NCBI GenBank assembly: GCA_036676495.1
Contig: JAKFCT010000069.1
Coordinates: forward strand, 1 to 64,000
Length of the DNA stretch: 64,000 bases
Direction of reading: 5' to 3'
From: Candidatus Sericytochromatia bacterium
GTDB taxonomy: Bacteria; Cyanobacteriota; Sericytochromatia; S15B-MN24; UBA4093
How positions within the stretch are numbered: position 1 is the stretch's first letter; the number at the start of each line of letters is the position of its first letter. Shown here piece by piece: positions 19,135 to 36,322 of the stretch. The notes under the pieces are model-generated. The model was not told the DNA's origin. It ran no database searches and saw only the letters and a list, made by a program, of their open reading frames with translations. A program made the translations under genes and the position numbers.

Positions 19135-19320
19135 GCGGTAAGTACGGGCCTCAGAGAACGGAGAAAAAGAAAGCGCGCCAGCCGTTAGGAGCCCTGCTGG
19201 CGCTCGACTCGATACCCTCCTTGCGGAGGTTCAGGTCGGAGTGGCGGGAGGGGTACTCGGATAGAGGCACCCCAGCCCGCAAAGGTCCAAGATCGGGTCT
19301 GCGAACGGCTCCTGAACTAG
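19135..19320 (+). mobile_element. tRNA-Pro att-like junction copy B (recombinase 3' relic + double hairpin + core + coding tail)
   Basis: GCCAGCCGTTAGGAGCCCTGCTGGC hairpin, CCTCCTTGCGGAGG hairpin, core GGTCGGAGTGGCGGGA (19234-19249), tail SGRSGG...KVQDRVCERLLN*. Confidence 0.75.
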
Positions 19321-19323
19321 CAG

Positions 19324-20808
19324 TCAGGGGCTAGTGACTTCGATATGGAAGCCGTCCCCCTCCCGTCGCAGAACTGCTTGTTGCGCGCGCAGCTTGAAGC
19401 CGGGCTGTTCGACCTCGAGGCTTCCTGAGGCGACCGAGGAGCCTGCGAGAAGCGGTTTTCCATTAACCCGGATCGCGCTCGGCTCCAGATTTCGGTATAG
19501 CTCGACCGTCAGTACCTTGGGCATGGTGTGTCGGATTGCGATGACGTTCTCCATCGTCAGCACCGGTTGTTTTGTCTTGGCGTGGGTGAACGCGAGAAGT
19601 TTACCTCGGGTGAGCCGGCGACCATCCGCGATGTCCCACGACTCGACCCATGAGCCGCCCATCGAGACGAGGTGCGAGGGCAGCTTCAGCGACAGCCGCG
19701 TTGCTCCCTGGCTGCGGAACTCCGTCATGACGTGCTCAATCTCACGGGACTCGGCTGCGGCCTGGGCTTGAAACTGAGCCTTGTGGCGCGACAGCTCTGC
19801 GTCGATGTTGTAGCGCTTCCCGAGTTGCTGGATGATTTCTTCGGGGCGCTGTTGCGGGCTCACGGCCTCCGCGAGAAGCCCATCCAGGGAGTCGACGTAA
19901 TCCGAGAAGCGGCCTTTCCATTCTGGCATCAAGCGGTCCAAGAGATGGCAGATGGCCGCGCCCATGACGTAATACCGCGAGCGATCCGGATCCTGCTGCT
20001 TCTCTAGCGCCGCTTTCAGCCTGGACGTCGTATAGGCGATGTGATTGGAGGCCCCCTTGGGATGGCTGCGCTCGAAGAACTTGTCCGTCAGGTACTGGGC
20101 CGTGCCTTCCGTTACCATCATGCCTTGCCGGTAATCCGCGTAATTCTTCGGGATCATGCTGTCGTGCTTCTGGCGTACCGCCAAGTAGAGCATGGCCCCG
20201 GTCTTGAGCGAGTTCGGGGTGCTTTCCCCGATGAGGCGTGCGAGAAGTGAGGCTTCGAGTTGCGTATAGGCGAAGTCTTCGGCGTCGAGAAGGCGCTCGT
20301 CGCCCTTTGCCATGCGGTGCATGAAATTTTCTTGGGCGGTGAAGTGAAAGGTTTCGTGGAACAGCGTCAGAAACTCGTGGATCGGATCCAGGGTCTCAGC
20401 CGTCTTCGCTTGCGCCAATTGCTTGACGATGAAGACGCGTTCGCCGTCGACATGCTTTTCATCCCAGGCGTTATCCGTTGCGAGCCCGAGTCGTCTCACG
20501 GTTTCGCCTTCAAGGCGCTTGACGCTAGGCAACGATGGAAGCGGCCGCCCGTCTAGCCTTTTGGACGTGCTCGTCGGGGGAGCGTTCAACAAGTAGTAGG
20601 TGTCACCAGTCCCGTAAACCAGCGGGTAGCTGGTGAGATCGTAGCCAGGCCAGACGGGGCCTTCTTTCGCGCTGTTTAGGTAGCCGACGAGACGCGTCAG
20701 GACCACCTCATCGTGACTTGGCGCCGGTTTCGCCGCCGCCTGGATCGGTTGGGGCAGCATCGCAAGTAAGAGAAAGAGAGAGATGGCGAGTCGCTTCTTG
20801 ATGCGCAT
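19324..20808 (-). CDS. Secreted putative zinc metallopeptidase (gluzincin-like)
   Basis: Signal peptide; HETFH (HExxH) plus downstream EGTAQY. Confidence 0.6.
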   Translation of the reverse strand: MRIKKRLAISLFLLLAMLPQPIQAAAKPAPSHDEVVLTRLVGYLNSAKEGPVWPGYDLTSYPLVYGTGDTYYLLNAPPTSTSKRLDGRPLPSLPSVKRLEGETVRRLGLATDNAWDEKHVDGERVFIVKQLAQAKTAETLDPIHEFLTLFHETFHFTAQENFMHRMAKGDERLLDAEDFAYTQLEASLLARLIGESTPNSLKTGAMLYLAVRQKHDSMIPKNYADYRQGMMVTEGTAQYLTDKFFERSHPKGASNHIAYTTSRLKAALEKQQDPDRSRYYVMGAAICHLLDRLMPEWKGRFSDYVDSLDGLLAEAVSPQQRPEEIIQQLGKRYNIDAELSRHKAQFQAQAAAESREIEHVMTEFRSQGATRLSLKLPSHLVSMGGSWVESWDIADGRRLTRGKLLAFTHAKTKQPVLTMENVIAIRHTMPKVLTVELYRNLEPSAIRVNGKPLLAGSSVASGSLEVEQPGFKLRAQQAVLRREGDGFHIEVTSP

Positions 20809-20895
20809 CGTGGCCTCCGTGCTCGGTAGGTGGCTCTAGCAACATACCCGATCGCGACAAAAGAAAGGGTGCCAGCAAGCGATCGACAGGGTTCC

Positions 20896-21050
20896 TTGAC
20901 AGCGAAACGGGACATGTGGCAGGATGCGTACGGTCCATCCCGAGGAGGTCCCGACCGCGATGTAATTCCTGACATACGGCCATATCCCCAGAATGCAGGC
21001 GCGCCGCAAGACGGTCGCAGCCGACGTGCAATGCGAGGACCCGTATGTCA
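20896..21050 (+). promoter_or_regulatory. Promoter and putative attenuation leader of the ABC-F gene
   Basis: TTGACA at 20896; SD GAGGAGGT at 20942-20949; ATG-TAA at 20960-20965; TGACATACGG (20970-20979) perfectly complementary to CCGTATGTCA (21041-21050), which covers the start codon. Confidence 0.6.
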
Positions 21051-22544
21051 CTTCTTTCCGCGAGCCGGGCGACGTTCCGGCATCCGGCCATGCCGGACGA
21101 TCTCTTCTCGGACGTCACCTTCCACATTTCGCCTGGCGATCGGATCGCCCTCGTCGGCCCCAACGGGGCCGGCAAAACGACGCTTCTCAAGCTCATGACC
21201 GGTGCGCTCATGCTCACCGAGGGGGCCATCGTACGGCGGCGCGGCCTGCTCGTCGCGACGATGGACCAGGTTTCCGAAGCGCCTTCCGATCGATCTCTCT
21301 TGGCCCATGTCGCGGCAGCCGAGCCTGATGGCGCCGAATGGCGCGCCGTGATGGTGCTCGAGGGCCTGGGGCTGCCGGCCTCAATCCACGACGCGCCATG
21401 GGGCACGCTCTCCGCGGGACAGCGCTCGCGCGCCATGCTCGCGGCGCTGCTCGTCGCCCCGGCGGATCTGCTCTTGCTCGACGAGCCGACCAACCATCTC
21501 GACGCGGAGGGGCGCGACTGGCTCGAAGCATGGCTGCCCCAGCAGGACGCCGCCATCGTGCTCATCTCCCATGACCGGGCGTTCATCGAAGCCTCCGCCT
21601 CACGGATCTTCGAGCTGCGTCGCGGCAAGCTCACCGTTCACGAGGGTGATTACGCCTATTTCCGTGAAGCCAAGGCCCTAGCCGATCGCCAGGCATGGGC
21701 TGCCTTCGAGGGGCAGCAGCGCCGCCAATCGGCGGCCACCCGGGCCGCGGCGAAACGCACGGCTCTTGCTCAGGATGTCGCGAAGGCCCCGAAAGGCCCA
21801 GGCCTTGGCGATAAGTCCTTTTACAAGGCCAAGGCTGCGAAGGTGGAAAAGACGGCAAAGATCATCCAGGCACGGGCCGAACGAGTCCCCGAGGCTCCGA
21901 AGCCGATCCTCGACGACGACATTCCCGTCCTGGATTGGGGGTTCGTGCGTCGATCGGGCGAACTGCCACTTGCGGTCAGGGGGCTCGCAAAAGCCTACGG
22001 CGATCACGGCCTCTTCGAGGGGCTCAGCTTCGACCTCGGGCGCGGCGAGCGGCTGGCCGTCCTCGGACAGAACGGAGCAGGCAAGACTACCCTGATCCGA
22101 ATTCTGCTCGGCCTCGAGACCCCGGACGCCGGGGAGATCGTCTGGGGGCATGGCGCTCAGCCCGGCTGGTTCGGGCAAGAGGCAGAGCAGCTCGACCCGG
22201 AGCTTTCGGCGCTCTCTAACCTGCTCACGGTGCGCCCAGACCAGGCCCGGGCCAGACTTCTGCTCGCTTGTCTAAGATTACGCGGGGACCGGGCATTTCA
22301 GCCGGTAGGTACCATGAGCGCGGGGGAACGCGCCAAGGTCGCACTCGCCAGGCTCTTGCTCAGCGGCGCCAACGTGCTCCTGCTCGACGAGCCCACCAAC
22401 CATCTCGATCTCGATACCCGTGAGGCCATTGAAGCGACCCTCGCGACGTATCCCGGTGCGATCGTGCTCGTGAGCCATGACCGACGCTTCATCGAGGCGA
22501 TCGCCACGAGGACCCTCACACTGGGGTCTCCTGAGAGGGGGTAA
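21045..22544 (+). CDS. ABC-F ATPase, ribosomal-protection-like
   Basis: Two NBDs (GPNGAGKT and GQNGAGKT, LLLDEPTNHLD twice), no TM segments, long basic interdomain linker. Confidence 0.88.
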   Translation: MSLLSASRATFRHPAMPDDLFSDVTFHISPGDRIALVGPNGAGKTTLLKLMTGALMLTEGAIVRRRGLLVATMDQVSEAPSDRSLLAHVAAAEPDGAEWRAVMVLEGLGLPASIHDAPWGTLSAGQRSRAMLAALLVAPADLLLLDEPTNHLDAEGRDWLEAWLPQQDAAIVLISHDRAFIEASASRIFELRRGKLTVHEGDYAYFREAKALADRQAWAAFEGQQRRQSAATRAAAKRTALAQDVAKAPKGPGLGDKSFYKAKAAKVEKTAKIIQARAERVPEAPKPILDDDIPVLDWGFVRRSGELPLAVRGLAKAYGDHGLFEGLSFDLGRGERLAVLGQNGAGKTTLIRILLGLETPDAGEIVWGHGAQPGWFGQEAEQLDPELSALSNLLTVRPDQARARLLLACLRLRGDRAFQPVGTMSAGERAKVALARLLLSGANVLLLDEPTNHLDLDTREAIEATLATYPGAIVLVSHDRRFIEAIATRTLTLGSPERG

Positions 22545-22630: not shown

Positions 22631-24076
22631 TCATTCGCGATCGATCGTGAGCAACTGCGGGGGTGTTGCGTCTGCCGGATAGATCAGCTGCAAGAGCACC
22701 TCGCGTCGTGCTTGAGGCGGAACCTCAATCACCTCGAACGGCGGTAGGCGCTGCCCCTGTCGCAGGGTGACGTGCGTCAGCCGGGTCACGTCCATGCCTC
22801 GCTCGTTCTTCCAATCCAGGCGAACGGTGCCACGGAACGTGACGGGAAGATTCGGAGGCTCGAGGTAGGTAACCGTTCGTCCTGTCGCACTCACGGGGTG
22901 CGAAAGCGACAGGGCGTAACGGCGCGGAGTCAGGTCAGGGTTCGATAGGGGAAGTCGCAGCCGGTAGGCCACCCCGTAGTTGCCGTGGGCCTGGTAAGCG
23001 GTCTCTGGGTAGCGCCGCAGCATGGGGGCACTTTGGACCTGGTCGGTTCCCAGGCGTTTCAGGTAGGTGGTCGCGAGCGGGTACGCCACGCCAGAGCCAG
23101 GCTGGGAGATCAAGGCCGACTCCCCCTCCGTGCTAAACGCCTCTCCTCGCCACTGGCTCCCGAGGCTCACTCCGGCCACACGACCAAACGTGAACCCACC
23201 CATCGGGGGAGGTTTTCCGGGGTCGAAGGGCGTCGCAGCCGCTTCACGATCCCCCGCCAGCTGGCCTAGTCGGATCAACGCCTCGTAGTCGTCCAGTTGA
23301 GGGACCAGGAACTCTCCGGTTTCGCTGCGCCTGGCGAAGATCGCAACCTCCGAGAGGTAGACCGGCCCATCGCTCTCGAAGTCGGCGAGAACGCTCCGGC
23401 CGTTGACCGCCGGGAGGCTCGGGACGTCGGTGGGAATGGGCCACTGGTAGAGGAGTTTGGATTCGCGGGGCTCCAAGCGGAACGTCTCGAGCGGCAAGTT
23501 AGACGTGCCGAGCAGCAACTCGGTGGCGACGCGATCGCCGGGCCCCGCGTAGACCTCACCCAGCGGGTTGGGCACGATCGGGTCTAGGGGTCTGAACTTG
23601 GCATCCGGCTGACTGAGGTAAGACGAACCCCTGAAGGGGACGATCGTGTGCGCCTGGTCGCTCAGGTTGGTCGCGACCAGCCCGACGTAGAGAAGCCGCT
23701 CTCCGGGCGTCTCGTCCTTGGCAATGTGGTGGGAGAAGTACGAGAACTTCCCCTTGAAGGCATAGTCGAGGAAGGCCGGCCCATCGACCTCAGCGCTGGG
23801 AGGCAGGGTCGAAACCAGAATCCCTTCCCGCTGGACGATCTCAGGGCTGTTGCTGTTGAGCACCGGAGTCCCGTCGAGGCCGCCGGGAAGGGGAAAGACC
23901 GGCCGTTCAGTCGTCACGGGAACCTGCGGGCTCGGACTCACCTGCGGGTAGGGGGGCATTCCGCCTTCCCCTGGGGCTTGCGGGTGGCGAATCGTGCCGC
24001 ATCCCACCAGGAACGAGAAGACCAACAGGAGCGGCATCCGAGATGACCTGGGTGGCACGAAAGTACGCATTCGCAT
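22631..24076 (-). CDS. DUF3370-like lipoprotein
   Basis: Lipobox FLVGC; PLPGGLDGTPVLNSNSPE, SYLSQPDA, AYQAHGNYGV, YPADATPPQLLT; start may be 24037. Confidence 0.75.
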   Translation of the reverse strand: MRMRTFVPPRSSRMPLLLVFSFLVGCGTIRHPQAPGEGGMPPYPQVSPSPQVPVTTERPVFPLPGGLDGTPVLNSNSPEIVQREGILVSTLPPSAEVDGPAFLDYAFKGKFSYFSHHIAKDETPGERLLYVGLVATNLSDQAHTIVPFRGSSYLSQPDAKFRPLDPIVPNPLGEVYAGPGDRVATELLLGTSNLPLETFRLEPRESKLLYQWPIPTDVPSLPAVNGRSVLADFESDGPVYLSEVAIFARRSETGEFLVPQLDDYEALIRLGQLAGDREAAATPFDPGKPPPMGGFTFGRVAGVSLGSQWRGEAFSTEGESALISQPGSGVAYPLATTYLKRLGTDQVQSAPMLRRYPETAYQAHGNYGVAYRLRLPLSNPDLTPRRYALSLSHPVSATGRTVTYLEPPNLPVTFRGTVRLDWKNERGMDVTRLTHVTLRQGQRLPPFEVIEVPPQARREVLLQLIYPADATPPQLLTIDRE

Positions 24077-24316
24077 CGAGGGCCCCTTGCCACGATGGGC
24101 GGAAAACAGGGGTGGCATGCGACGCCATGGGCCGCTTCGTAGGTTCGGTTCATGAAAGCGCCGCGCGTTGGATCGTATGCTCCGCCTTCCGGTTCGGCCA
24201 GTTGCACTTTGCACCAGCCGGCACCGAGGGCCCGGACGTTTCTTCGATTGGCCTCATCGACTTGACGCCGCCAGGGCCCACGCGGAGCGTCCCTTACCGT
24301 CCTGCACCACCTCAGG

Positions 24317-24423
24317 CCGCTTGCGGAGTTTCAGGTCGGAGGAGCGGGATCGTCAATCCACGTGCCACCTTTCAGGCCACAAGGGTTAAAGACCTAGTCC
24401 ACGAGCTGCTTTTGACGATCTAG
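24317..24423 (+). mobile_element. att-like junction copy C
   Basis: CCGCTTGCGG hairpin relic, TCAGGTCGGAGGAGCGGGAT core, tail SGRRSG...RVKDLVHELLLTI*. Confidence 0.7.
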
Positions 24424-24460
24424 GCGTTGGGGAAAGCTGTAATCGTACTCGAACCTAAGG

Positions 24461-25576
24461 TTAGTCGATTTGAGGACTTGCTGTGCAGTTGGGAACCGAC
24501 ACGGAGTCCATCTCACCGGGGAAGAACCGTTGCTTGAGCCAGAGCGAGACGTAGACCAAGGCCACCAGAGCGGGCACTTCGACAAGGGGACCTACGACCG
24601 CAGCTAAGGCTTCCGAGGATGCGATGCCGAACATCCCGACAGCCACCGCGATCGCCAGTTCGAAGTTGTTTCCCGCTGCGGTGAAGGATAGAGCTGCCGT
24701 CTCCTGGTAATTGAAGCCCAAGGCCTTGCTCACGGCGAAGGCGAGGAAGAACATCACCAGGAAGTAGAGCACGAGCGGAATCGAGATGCGAACGACATCC
24801 ACGGGGAGGCTGACTATCTTGCTGCCCTGCATGCTGAACATCAAGACGATGGTGTATAGCAGGCCGATGAGGGCCGTTGGCCCCAGCTTGGGCATCAGGA
24901 CGTTGTCGTACCAGTCGCGTCCCTTCAAGCGAACGCCCACGATACGGGTGATGGCACCCAGGGCCAGAGGGATGCCGAGGAAGATGAGGACGCTCTTGGC
25001 GATGGCCCACATGGAGACGTCGAGTGCAGTGGCCGTGCCGCCCAGCCAGACCGGTAGGACCGTCAGGAAGAAGTAGCCCAACACCGAGTACATCGCGATC
25101 TGGAAAAGGGAGTTGAGCGCCACCATGATGGCAGCGGCTTCGCTGTCGCCTTTCGCGAGCATGTTCCAGAGCAGGACCATGGCGATGCAGCGGGCGAGCC
25201 CAATCATGATGAGGCCGGTTCGGTACTCCGGCAGGTCGGGTAGCATCACCCAGGCCAGGCTGAACATCACCACCGGTCCGAGAATCCAGTTGAAGAACAG
25301 CGAGGCCCCTAAGAGCTTCCCCTTCGCCTTGAATGTTCCGAGGGTTTCGTAGCGGACCTTGGCGAGGACCGGATACATCATCCAGAGCAAACCGATAGCG
25401 ATGGGCAGCGATACATCCGCCACCTGGACGGCATCAAGGGCCGGGCCGATACCCGGAAAGACCTTCCCGAGCAGAACGCCCAGCGCCATGGCGGCGAAGA
25501 TCCAGAGGGGTAGGAAACGGTCGATGAGAGACAGCTTCCCGACGATGTTCGATACCTGAACGGCTTCTGTGGCCAT
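24461..25576 (-). CDS. acr3: Arsenite efflux transporter Acr3
   Basis: LSLIDRFLPLWI, MMYPVLAKV, GLARCIAMV, AAGNNFELAIAVA, GPLVEVP. Confidence 0.95.
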   Translation of the reverse strand: MATEAVQVSNIVGKLSLIDRFLPLWIFAAMALGVLLGKVFPGIGPALDAVQVADVSLPIAIGLLWMMYPVLAKVRYETLGTFKAKGKLLGASLFFNWILGPVVMFSLAWVMLPDLPEYRTGLIMIGLARCIAMVLLWNMLAKGDSEAAAIMVALNSLFQIAMYSVLGYFFLTVLPVWLGGTATALDVSMWAIAKSVLIFLGIPLALGAITRIVGVRLKGRDWYDNVLMPKLGPTALIGLLYTIVLMFSMQGSKIVSLPVDVVRISIPLVLYFLVMFFLAFAVSKALGFNYQETAALSFTAAGNNFELAIAVAVGMFGIASSEALAAVVGPLVEVPALVALVYVSLWLKQRFFPGEMDSVSVPNCTASPQID

Positions 25577-25577
25577 G

Positions 25578-25901
25578 CTACAGCTCCTCGAAGATGGCCA
25601 AAGGCTCCTTGGCGGTGTCAGTGGCCTTGTAGTAGTTCCAGCGGCCCTGTTTCCGAGCCGTGACCAGGCCTGCTTGGCTCAGAACCGACAGGTGATGCGA
25701 GAGACTGCCTTGGGGCATCCCGAGCACTTCCATGAGGTCGCAGACGCAGACCTCGTGGTCCTTCACGAGGTGCAGCAACTTGAGGCGAACCTCGTCGCCC
25801 AGCGCCTTGAAGAGCCGGGCCTTGTCGGCCAGCCCGGCGGGCAACACGGTTGGGTTTGGACTCTCACAGCAGGCGGTGAGCTGCTTCAACTTCTTGAGCA
25901 T
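25578..25901 (-). CDS. arsR: ArsR family repressor
   Basis: FKALGDEVRLKL...EVCVCDL...LSHHLSVL; N-terminal CC. Confidence 0.9.
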   Translation of the reverse strand: MLKKLKQLTACCESPNPTVLPAGLADKARLFKALGDEVRLKLLHLVKDHEVCVCDLMEVLGMPQGSLSHHLSVLSQAGLVTARKQGRWNYYKATDTAKEPLAIFEEL

Positions 25902-25928
25902 GGGATCCCCTTGACAAGCTACGAACCC

Positions 25929-25962
25929 ATCGATTAATTTCGATTCATCGAGAAACGTCGAT
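25929..25962. promoter_or_regulatory. Tandem ArsR operator boxes in the divergent promoter
   Basis: ATCGA-N6-TCGAT twice (25929-25944 and 25947-25962). Confidence 0.7.
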
Positions 25963-26011
25963 GGTTCTATTCTACACCCAGTTCGCTCAGATTCAAGCGA
26001 GGAGGTCCACC

Positions 26012-26794
26012 GTGCCCTTGCCCACTTCCCAAGATGAAATTCGCCAGGTCGTTCAGGAGCACTACGCCGAGGTCGCAAAAAGCGCGCAGAGCTGTTGCGC
26101 TCCATCCTGCTGCTCGCCCAGTTCGACAAGCTTGGGCTACACTGCAGAAGACCTGACCTCAGTTCCCAAGGGGGCCGACCTCGGCCTCGGGTGCGGCAAC
26201 CCCCAGCTCATCTCTGAGCTGAAGCCGGGCGAGGTGGTGTTAGACCTTGGCAGCGGTGCGGGTTTTGACTGTTTCCTGGCCGCCAACAAGGTCGGGCCGA
26301 CCGGAATGGTCATCGGCGTGGACATGACCCCCGAGATGCTTGACCGTGCCCGTCAAAACGCCCACAAGGGGGGCTACTCCAACGTCGAGTTCCGTCAGGG
26401 GCTGATCGAGGACCTACCGGTCGAGGCTGGGACCGTCGACGTCATCATGTCGAACTGCGTCGTCAACCTCTCGCCTGCTAAGGCCCAGGTCTACCAAGAG
26501 GCGTTCCGGGTCCTGAAGCCGGGCGGGCGCATCGCCATCTCTGACGTGGTCGCATTCCAGCCGCTTCCCATCGAGATCCGGGAACAGCTCTCACTTTACT
26601 CGGCGTGCATCGCAGGAGCCGCGACCATCGCCGACATCGAGGGCATGCTCCGTGATGCCGGTTTCGATAACATAAACATCCAGGCGAAGCTGGAGGAGAG
26701 CCGGATGATGGTCCAGGAGTGGGCGCCCGGCAGTGGATTGGAGGAGTACGTGGCCTCGGCGATGATCACCGCAAGCAAGGCGGTTGGCCAATGA
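26012..26794 (+). CDS. arsM: Arsenite S-adenosylmethionine methyltransferase
   Basis: SCCAPSCC, LGLGCGNP, VLDLGSGAGFD, SNCVVNL, ACIAGA; SD ggagg before GTG at 26012. Confidence 0.92.
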   Translation: MPLPTSQDEIRQVVQEHYAEVAKSAQSCCAPSCCSPSSTSLGYTAEDLTSVPKGADLGLGCGNPQLISELKPGEVVLDLGSGAGFDCFLAANKVGPTGMVIGVDMTPEMLDRARQNAHKGGYSNVEFRQGLIEDLPVEAGTVDVIMSNCVVNLSPAKAQVYQEAFRVLKPGGRIAISDVVAFQPLPIEIREQLSLYSACIAGAATIADIEGMLRDAGFDNINIQAKLEESRMMVQEWAPGSGLEEYVASAMITASKAVGQ

Positions 26795-27198
26795 AACAGG
26801 TCCTGTTTGCCTGCATCCACAACACGGGGCGCAGCCAGATGGCTGAGGCATTCTTCAACCAGATCGCTGACCCCACCAAGGCACGCGCCATCTCCGGGGG
26901 AACTGAGCCGACATCGGGGATGAATCCCACCGTTCTCGCCGTCATGAAAGAGGTTGGCCTCGACTTGGTGGCCCAAGGGCATCACCCGAAGCTCGCAGAC
27001 CTGGACGCTCTCTCGGTCGGGGATCGGGCAATCTCCATGGGGTGTGGCGTGAGCCTGGCATGCCCTGCGCACTTGGGCCGGATGGAAGACTGGGGGCTGG
27101 ATGACCCTAAGGGGCAGCCCATCGAGCGCGTCCGCGAGATTCGCGACGACATCAAGAAGCGAGTCGAGGGCCTGGTACGCGAACTTGGGGTTTTGTAA
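26791..27198 (+). CDS. arsC: Arsenate reductase, LMW-PTP fold
   Basis: CIHNTGRSQMAEAF; MGCG...CP; DWGLDDPKG. Confidence 0.88.
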   Translation: MKQVLFACIHNTGRSQMAEAFFNQIADPTKARAISGGTEPTSGMNPTVLAVMKEVGLDLVAQGHHPKLADLDALSVGDRAISMGCGVSLACPAHLGRMEDWGLDDPKGQPIERVREIRDDIKKRVEGLVRELGVL

Positions 27199-27211
27199 GT
27201 TTTGAAATCGA

Positions 27212-27243
27212 TTAGGGGATGGGACGGTGATCCCATCCCCTAA
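27212..27243. terminator. Hairpin after arsC
   Basis: ttaggggatggga/tcccatcccctaa perfect stem. Confidence 0.65.
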
Positions 27244-27254
27244 TCCTTCGACAT

Positions 27255-28504: not shown

Positions 28505-30067
28505 CTAGTAAATTAATCCCCAGTAGACGTCGAGGATCGCACGGTTATCGTAGTACCACGCGTTGTTCCGAAGTTTCGTGATGGCCGAATCGTTGTTCGT
28601 GAGTTTGCCCTGCTGGACGTAGAGCGCCAGCGCACCGGTCACGATGGGGGCCGCGAAGCTGGTTCCCCAGCCACCATGCATCCCTACGTCGTAACCCGTG
28701 GTCTGGTTCGCAACTGCAACGTTGCTACCACCCGCGTAGATGTCAGCGAAGGTCATGTTCGCGGTACCGCTGCTGTACGAGGACACGCTCCGGTCCGTAT
28801 CATGCGAGCTTACGCCCAAGACCTCGCCATATCCTGCCGGATAGTTGTTCTGGTTCCCTTTGTTACCCGTAGAGGAAACCTGGATCATCCCGGCGTCGTA
28901 GTTGGCCTTAATGGCACCGTACCAGCCCCACATCCAGGCCGGATACAGCCAGCTGGTTTCCGTGGTCGAGAAGCTCATGTTCACGATCTTCACGCCGTCG
29001 TACCGCGCCTGATCCAGCGCTCGGGCGATCTGATTCATGTCCATGTTCTTCCCATCCTGGTCGGCGTACACGTGGTACGCGTAGGGAATGGCATGAGGAG
29101 CAACGCCCGCCGCTCCTGCAGAGTCGTTGAGCGCCGAGAAGATTAGCGAGGCGACGGGACGACCGTGACCCATTCCGACTCGAATGTCCTGATTGTTGTT
29201 TTCAAAGTTGTAGCTCCAGACGCTTCCGGAGTTCCCCCAGAGCTGAGTCGCATAGGGCTCACCAGGAGCCATGAAGCGGTTGTCGATGACCGCGACCTTG
29301 ACGCCCGCTCCGTTAGCAAAGCTCCATGCTGCAGTGCTGGACTGGGGATTGATGCGGTTGCCGTAAATACCACCGGTGCCGTAGTCCCGCATGTACCAGA
29401 ATTGGCTCGTCGAAGGCGTCACGCTGCCGTTACCCTCGTTGTAGAGGACCCCTGTGGCGTCGGTTCCAGCCTGATTGATGCCGATGTGGAAGACCTTGTT
29501 CGCCTTCTTGTTCTTGTGGACTTTCAAGACTTGCTGCAAGGCCTTGGCCGCCCGCTTGTCGGAGAAGACCATCTCGCCACGGACGCCGACCTCTTCGGAG
29601 AGCTGAGGAAGCTGGTCCAGGGCGACTTTGCTGTCTTCAAAGGCGACGAGGTAGGTGTCGGTATAGCCGTCCTCGATGTAAGAACTGTCGGGCATTGCCT
29701 TGAGCTTTTTCTCCTGCTTGACGATCCGCGCGCCGTACGTCTGCAGAAAGTTCGAGACCTCACCGTCGGTGGCGCCCTCCTCGAACGTGACTCGCGTCTC
29801 GTCGGGGTAGAACGTGACCACTGTTTCAGGCTTATTCTTCAAGTAGTACTTGGACTCGCGGCCAAGAGACTGGGTTGAGACGTCGGACTCGAACGAGTAG
29901 GTGAACGGCTTGTCAGCCAACTCGGGAAGAACCGTACGAGGATTCGTGTGCTCCACCAGGGGAGCCCCTTTGACCATGTCCTTGTCTTGACCGTCTTGAA
30001 TGCTTGAGGGCGGCACGCAGCCGACCAAGGCCAGGCTCAGGATTAGCGCGAGCTTCGTGAGTTTCAC
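28505..30067 (-). CDS. S8 (subtilisin-like) serine peptidase, lipoprotein
   Basis: Lipobox LVGC; catalytic triad VAVID, GHGRPVAS, GTSFAAP. Confidence 0.85.
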   Translation of the reverse strand: MKLTKLALILSLALVGCVPPSSIQDGQDKDMVKGAPLVEHTNPRTVLPELADKPFTYSFESDVSTQSLGRESKYYLKNKPETVVTFYPDETRVTFEEGATDGEVSNFLQTYGARIVKQEKKLKAMPDSSYIEDGYTDTYLVAFEDSKVALDQLPQLSEEVGVRGEMVFSDKRAAKALQQVLKVHKNKKANKVFHIGINQAGTDATGVLYNEGNGSVTPSTSQFWYMRDYGTGGIYGNRINPQSSTAAWSFANGAGVKVAVIDNRFMAPGEPYATQLWGNSGSVWSYNFENNNQDIRVGMGHGRPVASLIFSALNDSAGAAGVAPHAIPYAYHVYADQDGKNMDMNQIARALDQARYDGVKIVNMSFSTTETSWLYPAWMWGWYGAIKANYDAGMIQVSSTGNKGNQNNYPAGYGEVLGVSSHDTDRSVSSYSSGTANMTFADIYAGGSNVAVANQTTGYDVGMHGGWGTSFAAPIVTGALALYVQQGKLTNNDSAITKLRNNAWYYDNRAILDVYWGLIY

Positions 30068-30269
30068 ATGCGCTCCTTTACTTTTGCTATGGTGCTGTAA
30101 TAGTGGTTGTTACGTCATATGCGTTATCATAGCAGTTGGATGGCCGCTTCTACAACTATCCTTGCGCTTCCCGTGGATGGTTTTGCCGAGCGTAACTTGG
30201 TCACGGACTTTGCTTAGAGTCGTGTGTGTTGATAACGACGCCGCGCAATTTTCTCCTTCCGCGATCCGG

Positions 30270-30626
30270 TCAGGCGTCCCAAGCGGCCCAGGCCGTGTAG
30301 AGCACCGACGTGATGTAGTACCCGGTGACGGTGTTGCTCGCCGCCCCTGCTTGCCACGGCGGTATCTCGCTATAGCTGAAACTTGGGCCTCCGTACCGTT
30401 TGACGTAGGATGCTGCCATCGCCAGGAAAATGCCAACGCTACCGGCCGAGAAGGCAAGCCCTCGCATAGGATCGCCTGCATACATGTGTCCAACAGAAGG
30501 CAATGTCGTGACCAGAACGGTTGGTCCGACGTTCAGGTCTCCCTGGCCGACCGAGGTCCCTTTCACTTTCCCGGTAGGGCGAGTTGATAGGGTGAGACCT
30601 GCGGCAACCCAAGGATTGTGAGACAA
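30270..30626 (-). CDS. Small hypothetical membrane protein, possibly a fragment
   Basis: LPSVGHMYAG plus two hydrophobic segments ending WAAWDA. Confidence 0.35.
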   Translation of the reverse strand: MSHNPWVAAGLTLSTRPTGKVKGTSVGQGDLNVGPTVLVTTLPSVGHMYAGDPMRGLAFSAGSVGIFLAMAASYVKRYGGPSFSYSEIPPWQAGAASNTVTGYYITSVLYTAWAAWDA

Positions 30627-31102
30627 GGAGGCTGCTGAAGTGACAGGCTCCGAGGCTACGGAACGGGTGGCAAGGAAGGACTCGACAGGGCCCTGAGGAT
30701 GCAGCGCATAGGGCCTCCGATCGAGACCATCGCTGGCTCATCAGGTCTTCGAGCTGGACGGCCCAAGACTTGCCCATGGCCCCTTATGTATACGAGTTAT
30801 CCATGTGGCTTCGCGGATCGGAGCTTCGGTCCGCTGCTGAGCGATCCACGGAAGTGCAGGGCGATCGAGACCGCTTTCATTGGTTCTGCCGGGACTTCTT
30901 GCCGTAGCGCAGCACGCCCACCTTCGTGAGCTGCATGCCCTGGGCGACGTGAAGGTGGGCGTTGCCGGCTTGCGGGCGCTAGAGCCTCTGCCTCCGGTTG
31001 AAGCGGCGCTTGCCGGCACACTATACTACCTGCGGATCGGGTTGGGTGGACGAAGATGCCGGCGCGACGCGCCCGAGATTGAGACGTAGGAGAATAGCCA
31101 CT

Positions 31103-31591
31103 ATGAAGAAAGCCATCATCTACCTGTGGTATGAGCACGACGCGGAGGAGGCAGCACACTTCTATGCCCGGACCTTTCCCGACAGCAAGGTCGGCGCGGT
31201 GCAACGGGCGCCGTCCGACTTCCCGAGCGGCAAGGCGGGTGACGTGCTGACGGTCGAGTTCACGGTGTGCGGCCTGCCATGCGTGGGCCTCAACGGCGGG
31301 GACGCGTTCAAGCAAAGCGAAGCGTTCTCCTTCCAGATCGCCACCGAGGACCAGGCGGAGACCGACCGCTACTGGAACGCGATCGTCGGCAACGGCGGTG
31401 AGGAGAGCGCGTGCGGCTGGTGCAAGGACAAGTGGGGCGTGTCATGGCAGATTACGCCGCGCGTCCTGACCGAGGCGATGGCCCAGGGTGGCGAAGTCGC
31501 GAAGCGCGCGTTCGAGGCGATGATGGAGATGCAGAAGATCGACGTCGCAAAGATCGAGGCGGCGGTGCGCGGCGAGACTAACCCGGGATAG
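31103..31591 (+). CDS. VOC family protein (PhnB/3-dmu-9_3-mt-like)
   Basis: LWYEHDAEEAAHFY...LNGG..F...AFSFQI...CGWCKDKWGVSWQITP. Confidence 0.88.
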   Translation: MKKAIIYLWYEHDAEEAAHFYARTFPDSKVGAVQRAPSDFPSGKAGDVLTVEFTVCGLPCVGLNGGDAFKQSEAFSFQIATEDQAETDRYWNAIVGNGGEESACGWCKDKWGVSWQITPRVLTEAMAQGGEVAKRAFEAMMEMQKIDVAKIEAAVRGETNPG

Positions 31592-31669
31592 GATCTCCAG
31601 CGCCTAGGAAACTAACGAGGGCCTGACCGTTTTCGGTCAGGCCCAGCGTGCGTGCCACTCCCGCCGAGA

Positions 31670-32215
31670 GGATCCCCCAGTTCTTGGTCCGGGCAAAAGT
31701 GCGAAATTGGACCTCACTGTCACGATGTAAACGCTGAAACGCCCACTTGGCGGGCAAGTTCAGCGGGGGCCGAAAGTCCAACGCTTTGTGAGGGCGCCTG
31801 AAGTTATATGGGGCTCTCTGGGCAGCGATCTTACGCCTGGCGTCGTCCAGAGACAAGAACCAGTTGGGGGCCAAGCACTCGTCCTGAACGCTGCCGTTGG
31901 AGGATTCGATGAACGCATGGTCCTTGGGGTTACCGGGCCGAGAGAAGTCCAACGTGACGCCGTTCTCATAAGCCCAACGGTCCAAGCCTTTCGAGATGAA
32001 CTCGGGGCCGTTGTCGACACGATTGTTCTTGGGGACGCCACGCTGATGGCGAAGCCGCTCGAGGACGGCCACGACCTGCTCGCCCTTGAGCCCCTGGTCC
32101 ACCTCGATGGCTAAATTCTCCCGGGTAATCGTATCCAGTACGGTGAGGGACCGAAATCGCTTGTCATTGAAGAGCGCGTCTGAGACGAATCCCATGTACC
32201 AGCGCTCGTTCTCTG
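31670..32215 (-). mobile_element. IS3-family transposase remnant (integrase core)
   Basis: NERW...FRSLTVLDTITRENLAI...VDNGPEFISK...SRPGNPKDHAFIES..GSVQDECL; truncated against junction E. Confidence 0.85.
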
Positions 32216-32225
32216 CATTGAGGAG

Positions 32226-32309
32226 AAGAGAAAGACCGCCAGCAGTTAGAAGCCCTGCTGGCGGTCTATTCTTGATTCCCTTGCGGGAATCAGGTCGGAG
32301 CTGACCTGA
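32226..32309 (+). mobile_element. att-like junction copy E
   Basis: 76 bp (32226-32301) match 28098-28173 with 1 mismatch; the core sits in the inverted repeat TCAGGTC-GGAGCT-GACCTGA. Confidence 0.85.
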
Positions 32310-32557
32310 CCCCAATTACTTGGCCGAAGTGAATTGAACTCGGAATGTAAAGGGATCCTTCCAAACGGAAGGGCCTACGCGGGGGAGAGCGCTTGACGAC
32401 CCCAAGCCCTGGCGCGGCCGGGGCGTTCATACGGAGGGTGTCGGGGGAAGCTCTTCGCGTAGACCCTACCATAAACAAGAAATGTCACGGCGTGAGGCCG
32501 CATGATCTTATAGGATAGCAGTCCGCGCGGCCGGACTAAAGCACGCATCGGCGCGAT

Positions 32558-35353
32558 CTACCCGGTGGTGCGTAGCCCCGAGGCGATCGCGTTGACCGTC
32601 ATGAGCACCCGCAAGAGGGCGGCCTCGGAGGCCTCCCCCTCGGCCCGGAGCCGGCGCCAGCGGCCAAGCTCGGCGATTTGCTGGCGGTGCAGGGCCCGCA
32701 AGGGCTCCTCGCGCAGGCGCAGCGTCTTGTGCAGCCGGGGCCGGCGCTCGGCAAAGGGCGCCGGGAAGACGGCGTGCAGCATGCGCCGGGTCAGCTCGTA
32801 CTCGCCCATGATCTGGGTCATGGCCTGCTCGCGCAGCTCCGTGTCCTCCACCAGGCCGGCGTAGTCGCGCATGACGCGGGCGTCGGCGGTCATGAGGCTG
32901 GACTCGACGTTGCTGAGCACGTAGGTGAGGAACGGCCACCGGCTGGCTTCCTCGAGCACCTGCGCGAAGCCCTCGGCATCGCTTTCCTGCAAGCGGGCGA
33001 GGGCCGAGCCCACGCCAAACCAGCCCGGCAGGTAGAAGCGCGACTGGTTCCAGCTGAAGACCCAGGGAATGGCCCGCAGGTCGGCGAGCGTTCGCTTCCC
33101 GGTTCGGCGCGCGGGCCTGGAGCCGATGCGCCCCAGCTCCAGGGCATCGATCGGGGTCGCCTGGCCGTAGAAGGTCATGAAGCCCTCGGACTGGACCAGG
33201 GCCTCGTAGGCTTCCCGGCTCCAATCGGCGAGCTGGCGCATGCGCGGCGACAGCCCGCGCGGCACCGCCGCCCGGCGCCCGCGCAGGAGCGTGACCTCGG
33301 TGGTGGCCGCTGCGAGCAATTCGAGGTTGTAGGCGGCTTGATCCACGTGGGAGTACTTCTGGGCGATGGTCTCGCCTTGCTCGGTCATGCGGAGCTTGCC
33401 GGAAACCGTTCCCGGAGGCAGGGCCTCGAGGAAGCGGTAGGTGGGCCCCGCGCCGCGCCCGATGGTGCCGCCGCGCCCGTGGAAGTACTGGAGCGCGACG
33501 CCCAGTTCGCGCCCCACTTGCAGCATGGCGATCTGGGCCTCGTAGAGCCCCCACTGGCTCGCCAGGATGCCGCCGTCCTTGCTGGAGTCCGAGTACCCGA
33601 TCATCACCTGCTGCAAGGGTCGATCGCCATGCAGGCGCGCGAGGCTGCGCCGCGTCATGGGATGCGCCAGGAAGGTGCTCAGGATGCCCGGGCTGCGCTG
33701 AAGATCCTCGATGGTCTCGAACAAGGGCACGATCGGCAGGAGCGCGACGGGGCCGTCGGGACTCGCCACGACCAGGTCGGTTTCGCGGGCCAAGAGGTAA
33801 ACCACCAGCAGATCCGAGAGCGAGCGGGTCATGCTCACGATCAGCGAGCCGATCCCGGGGCCATGGTGCGCCAGGTGCTCGGCCAGCACCCGGTACGTAT
33901 CGAGGACCGCGTCGGCCTCCGGCCCGATGCCCCGGGTCGGGCGCGAAAACGGCCGCATGCGCTGAAGCTCGGCGTTGAGGAAGTCGAGCCGCTTACTTTC
34001 GGGCCAATCGGCAAAGTCCTCGCCGTCCAGGCCCCCGGCCTTCAGGAGCTGCGAGACGGCCTTGTCGTGGAAGACCGAGTTCTGGCGGATGTCCAGCTTG
34101 GCCAGGTGAAACCCGAAGGTCCTGAGACTGTCGAGGGCTTCCTGGACCTCGGTCTGCGCGAGCCGCCGGGCGCCCACCGCCTGAAGGGCGTCGCGCAGCA
34201 CGATCAGGTCCGCTTCGAGCTCGGAGGCGAAGCGGTAGGCCCCCGGATGATCGAGAAGCTTCACCGCGTGGCTGCGCATCACGTCCACCGGCAGCCTCAG
34301 GATCATGAGGTTGAGGAGTTGCCGCCAGGGCTCCTCGGGGTTGCGGTCCAGGGCTTCCTGGCCCCGCGCTCCCAGCTGGCCCGCCACCGTCCAGATCCGC
34401 TCCAAGAGCTCGGGAGGCGGGGCCTGGTAGCGATCTGACAAGCTGAGCTGCGCGGCCAGCTCCAGCAGCTGCCGCCGCAGCACCCGCATGGCCTGGAGCC
34501 TGAGGTCCGCGAGCGTCTCGCGGGTGACCTCGGCCGTCACCAGGGGGTGTCCGTCCCGGTCGCCGCCGACCCAGGTGCCGAAGCTCAGCAAGGGGCCCGT
34601 CGTCAGCTCGTCGGCCGCAAAGCCCGCTTCCTCCCAGGCCAGCCGCAGCCGCCGCTTCATCCCCGGCAGCGCCCGCGGGAAGATCTCGCGCAGGTAATGC
34701 TCGACGTTTCGCAGCTCGGAGGCCACGTCCGGCTTCTCGAGGAAGATCTCGCCCGTCCGCCAAAGCCTCTCCAGGACGCGCTTGACCGCGTCGCGGTTCT
34801 CGCGCTCCTCGATCGGCGTCAGGACGTGCTGGCGCTCCTGGAGGTAGCGAAACAATTCCCGGTGATGCTCCAGCACCGTCGCGCGCTTGGCCTCGGTGGG
34901 ATGCGCCGTCAGGACCGGCTCGATCGCGATCTCGGGAAGCGCCCGGGCGATCTCGTCGGACGCCAATCCCGCCTCCTTCAGCCGCGCGAGCGCATGCCCC
35001 CAAAGCCCCGGCTCCATGCCCAGGCCCGCCTCGGCCTCGTGACGCCGCCGGTGGTGCGCGAGCGTATTCTCCTCGGCCAGGTTCAAGAGCAGGAAGGCCA
35101 TCGAGTAGCCCTGGTAAAGCCGCTCGGAGTCGCCCTCCGCGACGACGGGCGCCTCGTCGCTCAGCCACGGCACCGCCCGCGCGCCCTCCGGACCGAGGTC
35201 TTCGAGCACCTCGCGAAAGCACTCCAGCAGGAAGCGGAAATCCCGCTCGAACGGATCCGCGCCCGCGCTCGGGGCCCATACCGTCGTCAAGATCGGCGAC
35301 CCTGCGGCGCGGGGCCGGCGGCTCTCGGGATTTGCTCGCTCGCTCATCGTCAC
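32558..35353 (-). CDS. ppc: Phosphoenolpyruvate carboxylase
   Basis: VLTAHPTE, GGDRDG, QQVMIGYSDSSKDGG, FHGRGGTIGRG, LRAIPWVFSW, C-terminal LRTTG. Confidence 0.95.
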   Translation of the reverse strand: MTMSERANPESRRPRAAGSPILTTVWAPSAGADPFERDFRFLLECFREVLEDLGPEGARAVPWLSDEAPVVAEGDSERLYQGYSMAFLLLNLAEENTLAHHRRRHEAEAGLGMEPGLWGHALARLKEAGLASDEIARALPEIAIEPVLTAHPTEAKRATVLEHHRELFRYLQERQHVLTPIEERENRDAVKRVLERLWRTGEIFLEKPDVASELRNVEHYLREIFPRALPGMKRRLRLAWEEAGFAADELTTGPLLSFGTWVGGDRDGHPLVTAEVTRETLADLRLQAMRVLRRQLLELAAQLSLSDRYQAPPPELLERIWTVAGQLGARGQEALDRNPEEPWRQLLNLMILRLPVDVMRSHAVKLLDHPGAYRFASELEADLIVLRDALQAVGARRLAQTEVQEALDSLRTFGFHLAKLDIRQNSVFHDKAVSQLLKAGGLDGEDFADWPESKRLDFLNAELQRMRPFSRPTRGIGPEADAVLDTYRVLAEHLAHHGPGIGSLIVSMTRSLSDLLVVYLLARETDLVVASPDGPVALLPIVPLFETIEDLQRSPGILSTFLAHPMTRRSLARLHGDRPLQQVMIGYSDSSKDGGILASQWGLYEAQIAMLQVGRELGVALQYFHGRGGTIGRGAGPTYRFLEALPPGTVSGKLRMTEQGETIAQKYSHVDQAAYNLELLAAATTEVTLLRGRRAAVPRGLSPRMRQLADWSREAYEALVQSEGFMTFYGQATPIDALELGRIGSRPARRTGKRTLADLRAIPWVFSWNQSRFYLPGWFGVGSALARLQESDAEGFAQVLEEASRWPFLTYVLSNVESSLMTADARVMRDYAGLVEDTELREQAMTQIMGEYELTRRMLHAVFPAPFAERRPRLHKTLRLREEPLRALHRQQIAELGRWRRLRAEGEASEAALLRVLMTVNAIASGLRTTG

Positions 35354-35449
35354 CCCCTGGCAAGGCCGTCCCCCCCACCTTAGGGGAGGACGCCCGGGTT
35401 GACGATGGTGCCTGTGTCGGATCTGGGGGGGAGTTTGGGGTGATTGCGC

Positions 35450-35622
35450 CTAAACGGGTGCCGCGACCCGCGCGTCGTCCGGCCGAGGCAGCGTGAACCA
35501 GAAGCGCGAGCCCTGGCCGAGCGCACTTTCTACTCCGATCGCCCCGCCATGCGCCTCCACCAGCGCCTTGGCAATCGACAGCCCCAGCCCGGTCCCCCCG
35601 TACGAGCGCGTCGTCGACGGAC
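35450..35622 (-). pseudogene. Histidine kinase HATPase C-terminal fragment
   Basis: [42 protein letters not shown] with no upstream body. Confidence 0.75.
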
Positions 35623-35624
35623 GC

Positions 35625-36248
35625 GGGGAACGGCTTGTGATTCCCCGCTGCTCAACGCCAGGGTGGTAGAGAAGCTGGTCTTCGACCTGCTTCTGCGTGG
35701 CCTCAAGGTCCGTCTCAACGAGCTTCGAGGTGCTACGACGCTGGTCACCGAATCTCCCAATGTCGGCGAGGTGGAGCGTGAACTGGCCGACTTGCAGACC
35801 AAGCGGGAGCTGATCCTCGACAACTACACGGATGGTTGTTATGGCCACGGACCCGAGGCTAAGGCCAAACGGGATGCCAAGCTTGCTCCGGTTCTTAAGC
35901 GGATCGAGGAGATCGAGAAGGAGCTAACGCCCGCGGAGCATTCCAAGCCAAACGAGCTGGAGGAAGCCCTGACCAACATCCGGGATCTCTGGGAGGCTTG
36001 GCCTACTTCGGTTCGGCGCGACATCCTGCGGACCTATGTCCCTGAGAGGTTCCAACTGCGGAAGGATCGTACCCTGCGAGCCGAGGTCTGCGGCGTTCTC
36101 CTTGAGGTAGACATTCCCGTCAAGCCTCAGCCGACCAAGGGGATGCGGTACGCCGGGCGCCAGAAGGCGGAGAAAAACCAAGACGGCCTGCAGTTAGAAG
36201 CCCTGCAGACCGTCTTAGATTCTACCCCCCTGTTAGGGGGGGTAAAGG
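35625..36248 (+). pseudogene. C-terminal remnant of a large serine recombinase-like gene abutting tRNA-Pro
   Basis: [19 protein letters not shown] (post-zinc-ribbon-like), coiled coil [22 protein letters not shown]...RIEEIEKEL, then RRDILR; convergent with and reading into the tRNA; no catalytic domain. Confidence 0.65.
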
Positions 36249-36322
36249 TCGGAGCGGCGGGATTCGAACCCACGACCCCCACTACCCCAAAGTGGTGCGC
36301 TACCAAGCTGCGCTACGCCCCG
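36249..36322 (-). tRNA. tRNA-Pro (GGG)
   Basis: CGGGGCGTAGCGCAGCTTGGTAGCGCA-CCACT-TTGGGGT-AGTGG...GTTCGAATCCCGCCGCTCCGA cloverleaf. Confidence 0.95.

Follow-up and report, generated by a model that had tools for sequence, protein, structure and literature searches.

The 64,000-nt stretch of DNA analyzed here (the window; contig JAKFCT010000069.1, below C69) comes from a soil-dwelling Candidatus Sericytochromatia bacterium (genome G000; assembly of 106 contigs, 4.14 Mb, 65.9% GC) and contains an island of about 30 kb that ends at a tRNA-Pro(GGG) gene. This island was probably built by repeated site-specific integration at the 3' end of the tRNA gene, carried out by a large serine recombinase (LSR); most of its modules lack a recombinase, and some of the junctions between them seem to have been deleted later. 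The array of modules and junctions is real, holds across the family, and is a compact variant of a known way of island building. A preliminary description, made from the letters of the window, had proposed a tRNA-anchored tandem array of att-type junctions with small, exchangeable modules without recombinase, and had called it integron-like. The array was confirmed, since the same modules were found in another genus, at other positions and with ends at junctions, but the label had to be given up (see below).

The 17-mer at the 3' end of the tRNA gene, GGTCGGAGCGGCGGGAT, was searched in the content of both strands of the window with ≤3 mismatches, and 100 shuffles were used as control. Four sites were found, all on the plus strand: exact matches at 36247 and 28165, and matches with 2 mismatches each (15/17) at 19234 and 24334. 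By chance 1.10 sites are expected at this tolerance, and four were reached in 3 of the 100 shuffles. The 14-nt loop word GTTAGAAGCCCTGC also occurs at four sites (19184, 28117, 32245 and 36193), compared with 0.40 expected, and no shuffle out of 100 reached this number. Repeat detection tied together the segments 19165-19310, 24330-24410, 28098-28241, 32226-32301 and 36154-36263 by families of 76-81 nt; all families that join the copies span 53-81 nt. Junctions in direct orientation are thus located at 19.2, 24.3, 28.1, 32.2 and 36.2 kb, with weaker vestiges at 27.3, 20.9, 14.5, 8.0 and 5.0 kb; they are named here by their kb position (J19, J24, J27, J28, J32, J36).

On the plus strand, a complete junction opens with an A-rich tract (AAAAGAAAG), followed by hairpin B (stem 12-13 bp, loop (T)TAGAAGC(C)) and, after a short spacer, by hairpin A, whose GC stem has 4-8 bp and whose loop is mostly TTGC; the tRNA 3' end and a conserved right arm of ~70 nt complete it. 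J19 and J28 are complete, and J36 is the real tRNA gene, where the tRNA body replaces the arm. The recurrence of the tRNA end with its adjacent double hairpin in one orientation, which had been noticed from the window, was borne out by both word searches. The double hairpin is present at J19, J28, J32 and J36, but J24 has no hairpin B, the core of J32 is cut after 9 nt by a 35-nt sequence resembling the end of an insertion sequence (IS), which also occurs on three other contigs, and the copy claimed at about 27255-27322 stands only as the decayed J27, with 25 nt at 88% and a weak profile match (E 0.19). J28 and J32 are 99% identical across 76 nt.

Profiles built from the junction copies were run with nhmmer against all 106 contigs. 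They matched the copies in the C69 array (four at E-values from 1e-20 to 9e-28 and J24 at 2.5e-4) and one copy on contig C66. The junctions are therefore not scattered over the genome independently of the tRNA, an outcome that had been named as one that would speak against the array. Rfam searches of 18.5-37 kb (E≤1) matched the tRNA alone, so that the junction belongs to no described RNA family. A structured RNA in the right arm is not supported by its fold z-scores (-1.0 and -1.1). The arm was also considered as the conserved C-terminus of a gene on the minus strand, because one frame that ends at the core seemed conserved on inspection; this idea was dropped because the differences between copies are not concentrated at third codon positions.

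The stems of the hairpins vary while their pairing is kept. Among 26 aligned copies from six genomes, 13 of the 21 proposed pairs vary on both sides and 88% of the cells are paired; these values were not reached in any of 500 shuffles, and slid controls gave 24-49% paired. The loop had been described as kept while the stems vary, and indeed the TAGAAGC loop of hairpin B (window 36194-36202) is near-invariant across three genera in which the stems are wholly changed (e.g. L034 8788-8897). In junctions with an LSR gene the loop falls within its reading frame (..QLEAL..), and it is equally conserved in modules without recombinase; it could be a protein-binding or processing determinant. Conservation of the junction begins sharply at the U-tract in most of the 26 copies. 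On the strand of the tRNA, hairpin A follows the tRNA end, hairpin B and UUUCUCUU come next, and folds of this strand reached -47 and -48 kcal/mol with z-scores of -6 (J36: -47, z -6.1) and -8. We read hairpin B as a terminator which each incoming unit would hand to the rebuilt tRNA gene. The promoter/terminator scanner used, which has a loop limit of 8 nt, did not list hairpin B.

Directly beside the tRNA gene, where a C-terminal recombinase remnant had been proposed, the C-terminal ~200 aa of an LSR could indeed be identified. The remnant is 47-55% identical to the C-terminal parts of the proteins from the related loci L002, L003 and L004, and 62% identical to residues 390-596 of the intact LSR of the metagenome locus L070. 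The full-length proteins of L003 and L004, which were both scanned, carry the Pfam domains Resolvase, Recombinase and Zn_ribbon_recom, and by homology to such proteins the remnant belongs to an LSR. In 35624-36214 itself no Pfam domain was found, including the resolvase catalytic domain with its serine nucleophile, and the alignment places the start of the remnant inside the zinc-ribbon region of its full-length relatives. What remains is thus a dead piece of an LSR gene and not a working enzyme.

Intact recombinase genes next to tRNA-Pro(GGG) had been suggested as something to look for in relatives, and they were found. The tRNA adjoins an LSR match in four of eight related loci scanned. At L070, an intact frame of 659 aa ends in the hairpin-B junction directly beside tRNA-Pro(GGG), and the nearest solved relative of its protein is the A118 serine integrase. 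Intact LSR genes lie at the same place in genomes G002 and G018 (L003), and in L002 and L006, too, an LSR match accompanies the tRNA. Hence, a site-specific recombinase is linked to the attachment site, as a stub in G000 and intact in relatives. Three other LSR-like genes of G000 (C20, C22, C104) are distant and barely match the remnant. A contig scan with a peptide pattern from the LSR alignment gave three loci, which, as it was one narrow pattern, says little about distribution. Viral contigs contained no match to the hairpin pattern or to the L070 LSR.

Some features of the LSR genes vary between loci. In all four loci compared (window 35444-36373; L003 1255-3234; L031 3368-5164; L070 10217-12193), the LSR frame meets no stop codon ahead of the junction but continues across the hairpins and the tRNA in antisense; as the frame taken across the tRNA varies from locus to locus, the tail is probably not a conserved part of the protein. 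At a J28-type site the same frame stops just past hairpin B. The LSR of G002 next to the tRNA is ~34% identical to those of L070 and G018. Metagenome locus L063 (7759-8816) has a different LSR, 31% identical to the G018 protein, which lies on the opposite side of the junction and reads toward the core. Judging from this difference in protein and side, LSRs of at least two lineages, in at least two element layouts, seem to use the junction sites.

Of the 41 genomes searched, 11 (G000 included) contain junction DNA, among them 7 of 9 other genomes of the same family. In all five relatives that were fetched, the arrays begin at tRNA-Pro(GGG) and extend from its 3' side. The six arrays (G000 and these five Sericytochromatia genomes) contain 38 junction loci and 32 intervals with a median length of 2.1 kb (range 0.57-8.3 kb). 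LSR coding traces, defined as matches at E≤1e-3, are present in three of the arrays and three of the intervals: the one intact gene in G002, which lies in the largest interval (8.3 kb), and the stubs in G000 (~200 aa) and G001 (~80 aa). Among 23 metagenome loci with the hairpin pattern, several show the same junctions, four of them beside the tRNA.

The array had been given an extent of 19135-36322. Window positions 5-6563 are collinear with G002 beyond the array of that genome, and collinearity with both G001 and G002 is seen on the tRNA-Phe side. From this collinearity and the vestiges it is concluded that the island covers ~6.6-36.3 kb and that the segment described before is its better-preserved, tRNA-proximal half. 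The GC content at 18-32 kb is 56-62%, compared with 65.9% genome-wide. G002, which belongs to the same genus as G000, shares the flanks but one array gene only.

Several modules could be followed into a different genus. The modules shared by G000 and G003, which belong to different genera, are 81.6-89.3% identical in nucleotide sequence, compared with 65-70% for the core DNA around the native PEP (phosphoenolpyruvate) carboxylase gene (ppc). The module with a secreted 494-aa protein (window 19165-20877) is 81.6% identical to the tRNA-adjacent module of G003, and the arsenic resistance (ars) genes are 84.1% identical to the copy in the G003 array. The ABC-F module (window 20879-22538), with 89.3% over 1660 nt the most similar one between the genera, has its counterpart in G003 two places further out than the tRNA-adjacent module. 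In G003 each shared module is bounded by junctions, and the ends of the shared segments lie 0-21 nt from them; in the window, the junction between the 494-aa and ABC-F modules is reduced to the A-tract and half of hairpin B. The interval of 19.2-24.3 kb, which had been taken as a single cargo, thus consists of three modules with decayed internal junctions. When the modules are read away from the tRNA, G003 has A, C', B and ars, and G000 has ars, C, B and A; every orientation is preserved, and the 494-aa module is tRNA-proximal in the former and distal in the latter. Likewise, modules for an LCM methyltransferase, cation efflux and alkylation repair, which are common to G001, G002, G005 and G008, are 81-90% identical, compared with 72-77% for the flanks. 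Overall, DNA identity between genera is 81-90% in shared modules and 65-72% in core DNA.

The repeats therefore coincide with synteny breaks and module boundaries, and direct repeats of the tRNA 3' end, all oriented alike, follow an intact tRNA on its 3' side; both features characterize islands grown by accretion. With LSR traces in three of 32 intervals, most units are flanked by att-type sites and have no recombinase or transfer genes, like cis-mobilizable elements (CIMEs) and the pseudo-SCC units of the staphylococcal cassette chromosome (SCC). In the modules of the window, Pfam showed an IS3 relic as the only recombinase or transfer gene, and no conjugation genes were seen in the array. 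Replication domains (primase, helicase, polymerase) were found neither in these modules nor in the LSR elements of G002 and G018 by general domain scans.

Based on these sequence comparisons, the following mechanism is proposed. Integrating units would carry a composite site of ~170 nt, which on the tRNA strand would comprise the right arm, a replacement of the last 16-18 nt of the tRNA, the small GC hairpin, the long hairpin and the U-tract. The LSR, encoded at the hairpin end of autonomous elements, would recombine this site with the tRNA gene, which would be rebuilt with a new 3' end and terminator while its previous 3' end is pushed outward. Stacking of successive units would therefore produce attP-like junctions between the modules. 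Where elements of one family are stacked, a junction would be expected to take its left part from the older unit and its arm from the newer one, and the observed pattern matches this. Since the identity common to all junctions ends at ...GGGA, the crossover would lie at or left of the border between T-stem and T-loop. The recombinase-less modules (0.6-5 kb, 1-4 genes) would be non-autonomous units of the CIME or pseudo-SCC type; we infer that the LSR makes the junctions and that the LSR of an autonomous element moves these units in trans. Some junctions would later have been removed by deletion. Because the sole cognate LSR of G000 is a dead C-terminal stub, its array will probably not change unless an LSR comes in and acts in trans.

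A more far-reaching possibility, which is put forward tentatively and is doubtful at present, is that Sericytochromatia of the array-bearing family run a serine-recombinase cassette system. Recombinase-less cassettes of 0.6-5 kb, with one composite site of ~170 nt each, would then leave and enter one at a time, with the recombinase acting in trans, either at tRNA-Pro(GGG) or at junctions within the array. Their site would form on circularization from the arm, the tRNA 3' end and the two hairpins, one of them with the invariant TAGAAGC loop. If true, this would be a functional analogue of integrons based on another enzyme class, in which each insertion gives the tRNA a new 3' end and terminator.

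Other explanations of the array have to be weighed against integration with mobilization in trans. All modules could have come in full LSR-bearing elements that were later shortened by deletions, so that recombinase-less modules never move alone. Such decay agrees with recombinase stubs of varied length near the junctions (~200 aa in G000, ~80 aa in G001, an echo of ~35 nt at J19), with junctions that themselves decay by deletion, and with the fact that the only intact element (G002) occupies the largest interval. Mobilization is nevertheless favored over pure decay, which is considered unlikely, because LSR traces are as scarce as stated above, the left edge of conservation is sharp in most of the 26 copies, and these modules without recombinase are found again, with 81-90% identity, in other genera, in other positions and with ends at junctions. 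The junctions might also serve as portable homology, with modules exchanged, lost or put in another order by homologous recombination or gene conversion between repeats of 100-170 nt, for example after DNA uptake, and with little site-specific recombination now. The near-identity of J28 and J32 would fit this, as would one hairpin of G003 that resembles a hybrid of two stem types, the lack of an intact cognate LSR in five of six arrays, and left halves of junctions that are more alike within than between genera. Exchange by homology, however, leaves unexplained that each junction contains the tRNA 3' end, that the arrays always start at the tRNA, and that the LSR gene, whenever intact, lies exactly at the tRNA-proximal junction; it is regarded as rather improbable.

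In an integron-like platform, a resident recombinase would capture promoterless cassettes via structured single-stranded sites. Integrons and the array have in common ordered, small, exchangeable modules (median 2.1 kb), structured repeat sites whose hairpins are kept while the stems vary, an adjacent recombinase locus, and adaptive cargo such as the arsenic genes, ABC-F and the HEPN/MNT-type pairs in G001. However, no tyrosine recombinase (Phage_integrase) was present among the 22 open reading frames (ORFs) scanned at 16-39 kb, and the linked recombinase is an LSR that travels with the element and not a fixed platform gene. Neither an IntI-type tyrosine recombinase at an attI site nor attC sites with co-oriented promoterless cassettes and a common promoter were seen (no attC model was run). 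The genes of the modules are found on both strands, at least one module has its own promoter-like site (a TTGACA-type word, read by eye, in the G003 copy of the ABC-F module), and the repeated site is a composite, attP-like one that includes the tRNA end and the U-tract terminator. A platform of this kind is therefore very improbable, and the earlier label is not kept. Hardly credible is an origin of the repeats as a dispersed terminator, a repetitive extragenic palindromic or miniature inverted-repeat transposable element, or an assembly artefact, unrelated to integration. Hairpin B with its U-tract does resemble an intrinsic terminator and one copy lies away from any tRNA, but the genome-wide profiles match the array and one other place only, the repeats include the end of the tRNA, five further assemblies and several of the 23 metagenome loci fetched show this architecture too, and segment ends shared between genomes fall at junctions.

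Several observations weigh against a history of LSR-driven integration at the tRNA. No intact cognate LSR was found in G000. The C66 copy is a full attP-like junction (C66:19391-19563) inside C66:17780-20985 (locus L051 3780-6987), a low-GC stretch of 3.2 kb that is inserted when compared with the empty sites in G001 and G002, and whose module is 72-74% like window 28105-28417 and 30213-30772. The C66 contig has no tRNA, and no att-like target was noticed in the empty site, which was read by eye. The near-invariance of the TAGAAGC loop is unexplained by a terminator role. Mean identity of the junction left halves is 0.835 within a genus and 0.774 between genera, although modules cross genera; to reconcile the two, one has to invoke gene conversion, homologous exchange or selection by the host on the trailer of the tRNA. 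Finally, the 76-nt repeat of J28 and J32 could mislead an assembler into a wrong join, and as all sources are metagenome assemblies (contigs), the order of modules in any one genome is uncertain.

By analogy, the array would work like SCC composites, CIMEs, the ssrA islands of Dehalococcoides and tycheposon islands, and it is not an integron. SCC and SCCmec elements are integrated by an LSR at the 3' end of a conserved gene (rlmH), stack in tandem and repeat the integration-site sequence, and pseudo-SCC units without ccr are presumed to be moved in trans. The array is alike in LSR integration at a gene 3' end, stacking and recombinase-less units, but target, host phylum and recombinases (Ccr) differ, and SCC units are much larger. 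CIMEs are att-flanked units without recombination or transfer genes, and arrays of them arise by successive site-specific integration; Pavlovic et al. in 2004 reportedly dealt with CIMEs and the tandem accretion of integrative and conjugative or mobilizable elements (ICE/IME). Flanking att sites, absence of a recombinase and serial accretion are common to both, whereas CIMEs are defined for tyrosine-recombinase ICEs of streptococci.

The genomic islands of Dehalococcoides (ssrA-GIs), in the parts of the report considered here (PMC3146451), lie in tandem downstream of ssrA, separated by direct repeats of its 3' end. A CcrB-like LSR adjoins the attachment site, insertion was inferred to take place in the T-loop/T-arm region, and 15 islands without an integration module were proposed to be cis-mobilizable. 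As far as these parts go (PMC3146451), the two systems share tandem insertion at a structured-RNA gene, an LSR, recombinase-less members and a similar inferred crossover position. They differ in the target (tmRNA compared with tRNA-Pro(GGG)) and in lineage, and also in the repeat, which is 20 bp plus a 15-bp motif in Dehalococcoides and a composite of ~170 nt with two covarying hairpins here; the second, small serine recombinase and six-gene integration module described in the same parts (PMC3146451) were not seen in the two annotated LSR elements. According to the consulted parts of the tycheposon report (10.1101/2020.12.28.424599), islands of Prochlorococcus grow at tRNA genes by repeated integration, the newer elements pushing the older ones outward, and contain scattered partial tRNAs, broken integrases and niche-adaptive cargo. 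The hosts are related within the cyanobacterial phylum and accretion at tRNA islands is shared, but 910 of 937 tycheposons use tyrosine recombinases and many have replication modules (same parts, 10.1101/2020.12.28.424599), whereas an LSR is found here and replication genes were not seen in the annotated array or the two LSR elements.

The array illustrates how Sericytochromatia, a little-studied, non-photosynthetic sister lineage of cyanobacteria, keep and exchange their flexible genes. In the literature searched, supplementary files aside, no mobile-element system of this kind was found described in this group. It is a hotspot of turnover: two genomes of the same genus share the flanks and almost none of the ~30 kb between them, and among the genes it carries are those for arsenic detoxification, for peptidases, for a second PEP carboxylase and for an ABC-F protein of the ribosomal-protection type. 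The conceptual advance is limited, since LSR tandem islands with recombinase-less members are already described (Dehalococcoides ssrA, SCC). The system lends itself to easy tests on plasmids, because a serine integrase with a natural tRNA target goes with a junction that is small and clearly delimited, and an integrase-att pair that repairs its own target gene may be of use.

The features of the window are listed in Table 1. Pfam and NCBIfam searches agreed with most of the cargo first proposed, namely ppc, an S8 peptidase, two VOC-type genes, an IS3 relic (rve), the genes for ACR3, ArsR, ArsM and ArsC, ABC-F and DUF3370; the supposed metallopeptidase, the 494-aa protein, has an HExxH word but matched nothing in Pfam, NCBIfam or PHROG. 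The array ppc is a second copy, with 38% amino acid identity to the native copy on contig C28, which all relatives share. That it was the ancestral chromosomal neighbor of the tRNA was rejected, because it is a second copy and because the long ORF at the array end of G002 is of the pyruvate phosphate dikinase type and not ppc. An echo of the recombinase 3' end, first described at 19135-19168, was found as 75% identity over 53 nt (19145-19197), but this stretch includes the hairpin.

Table 1. Features of the tRNA-Pro(GGG) island in the window, listed outward from the tRNA gene.
Feature	Position	Strand	Basis
tRNA-Pro(GGG), anchor, attB side; last 17 nt (36247-36263) are the repeated core	36247-36322	-	ARAGORN; Rfam tRNA 59.7 bits
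J36 left part: U-tract, hairpin B (stems 36182-36193 / 36203-36214, loop TTAGAAGCC), hairpin A (36224-36242)	36167-36246		nhmmer E 1.2e-20; sequence
LSR C-terminal remnant, ~200 aa; N-terminal catalytic, recombinase and most zinc-ribbon parts missing	35624-36214	+	homology, alignment
Histidine-kinase 3' fragment abutting the recombinase truncation point	35450-35640	-	repeat family D4, 77% to 36472-36602; translation is HATPase_c C-terminus
Second, divergent PEP carboxylase (ppc)	32558-35353	-	Pfam; NCBIfam
IS-end-like repeated relic interrupting the J32 core	32302-32542		blastn against genome
J32: both hairpins and first 9 nt of core	32221-32301		nhmmer E 1.6e-21; repeats
Module: S8 peptidase 28505-30067 (-), small unknown ORFs, PhnB/VOC-like 30998-31591 (+), IS3 rve relic 31578-32315 (-)	28264-32220		Pfam, NCBIfam
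J28, complete attP-like unit: U-tract, hairpin B, hairpin A, 17/17 core, right arm	28091-28263		nhmmer E 8.9e-28; repeats
Module: single VOC/glyoxalase-family gene 27540-27992 (+)	27401-28090		Pfam, NCBIfam
J27, decayed: hairpin B half and right-arm-like end	27256-27400		repeat family D5 (25 nt at 88%); nhmmer E 0.19
Arsenic module: ACR3 24461-25576 (-), ArsR 25578-26129 (-), ArsM 25961-26794 (+), ArsC 26719-27198 (+)	24418-27255		Pfam, NCBIfam
J24: hairpin A vestige, core 15/17, right arm; without hairpin B	24316-24417		nhmmer E 2.5e-4; repeats
DUF3370 protein module	22631-24214	-	Pfam; fragment present in G003 array
Ribosomal-protection-type ABC-F (gene 21045-22544) and upstream region	20879-22544	+	NCBIfam NF000355, 393 bits against cut-off 380
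Vestigial junction: U-tract and 5' half of hairpin B, between modules separate in G003	20858-20880		side-by-side sequences
Secreted 494-aa protein, HExxH word	19324-20808	-	sequence
J19, complete attP-like unit; short echo of recombinase 3' end on left	19135-19331		nhmmer E 1e-21; repeats
Right-arm vestige, older island part	14485-14547		nhmmer E 1.2e-4; 2.3e-3 genome-wide
Hairpin B vestige, older island part	8046-8097		nhmmer E 0.007
Vestige	5044-5094		relaxed search

Across the tRNA from the histidine-kinase fragment (35450-35640) lies an intact kinase gene, whose 3' end (36472-36602) matches the fragment at 77% identity; no origin was found for the fragment. A conserved pair of this fragment and ppc was considered and rejected, as there was no match near the G003 homologue. 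In the array of G001 (L030 9960-10723), single modules contain a pair of the HEPN/MNT type (NTase_sub_bind and Polbeta nucleotidyltransferase) and a YhcG-type nuclease, so that defence or addiction genes are also array cargo.

In L033 (G008:C11), two complete tRNA-Pro(GGG) genes lie in one array (9697-9772 and 16524-16598), and a further junction lies no more than 70 nt after the inner gene; the arrangement looks like a captured whole tRNA, perhaps acquired by imprecise excision and re-integration. The gap between tRNA-Phe(GAA) and tRNA-Pro(GGG) is variable. It holds a PAS histidine kinase in the window (36323-38110), nothing within 275 nt in G001 (L030 6613-6887), and a pyridine-nucleotide-disulphide oxidoreductase/rhodanese protein in G002 (L031 970-3416), and it may be a second hotspot at the 3' side of tRNA-Phe.

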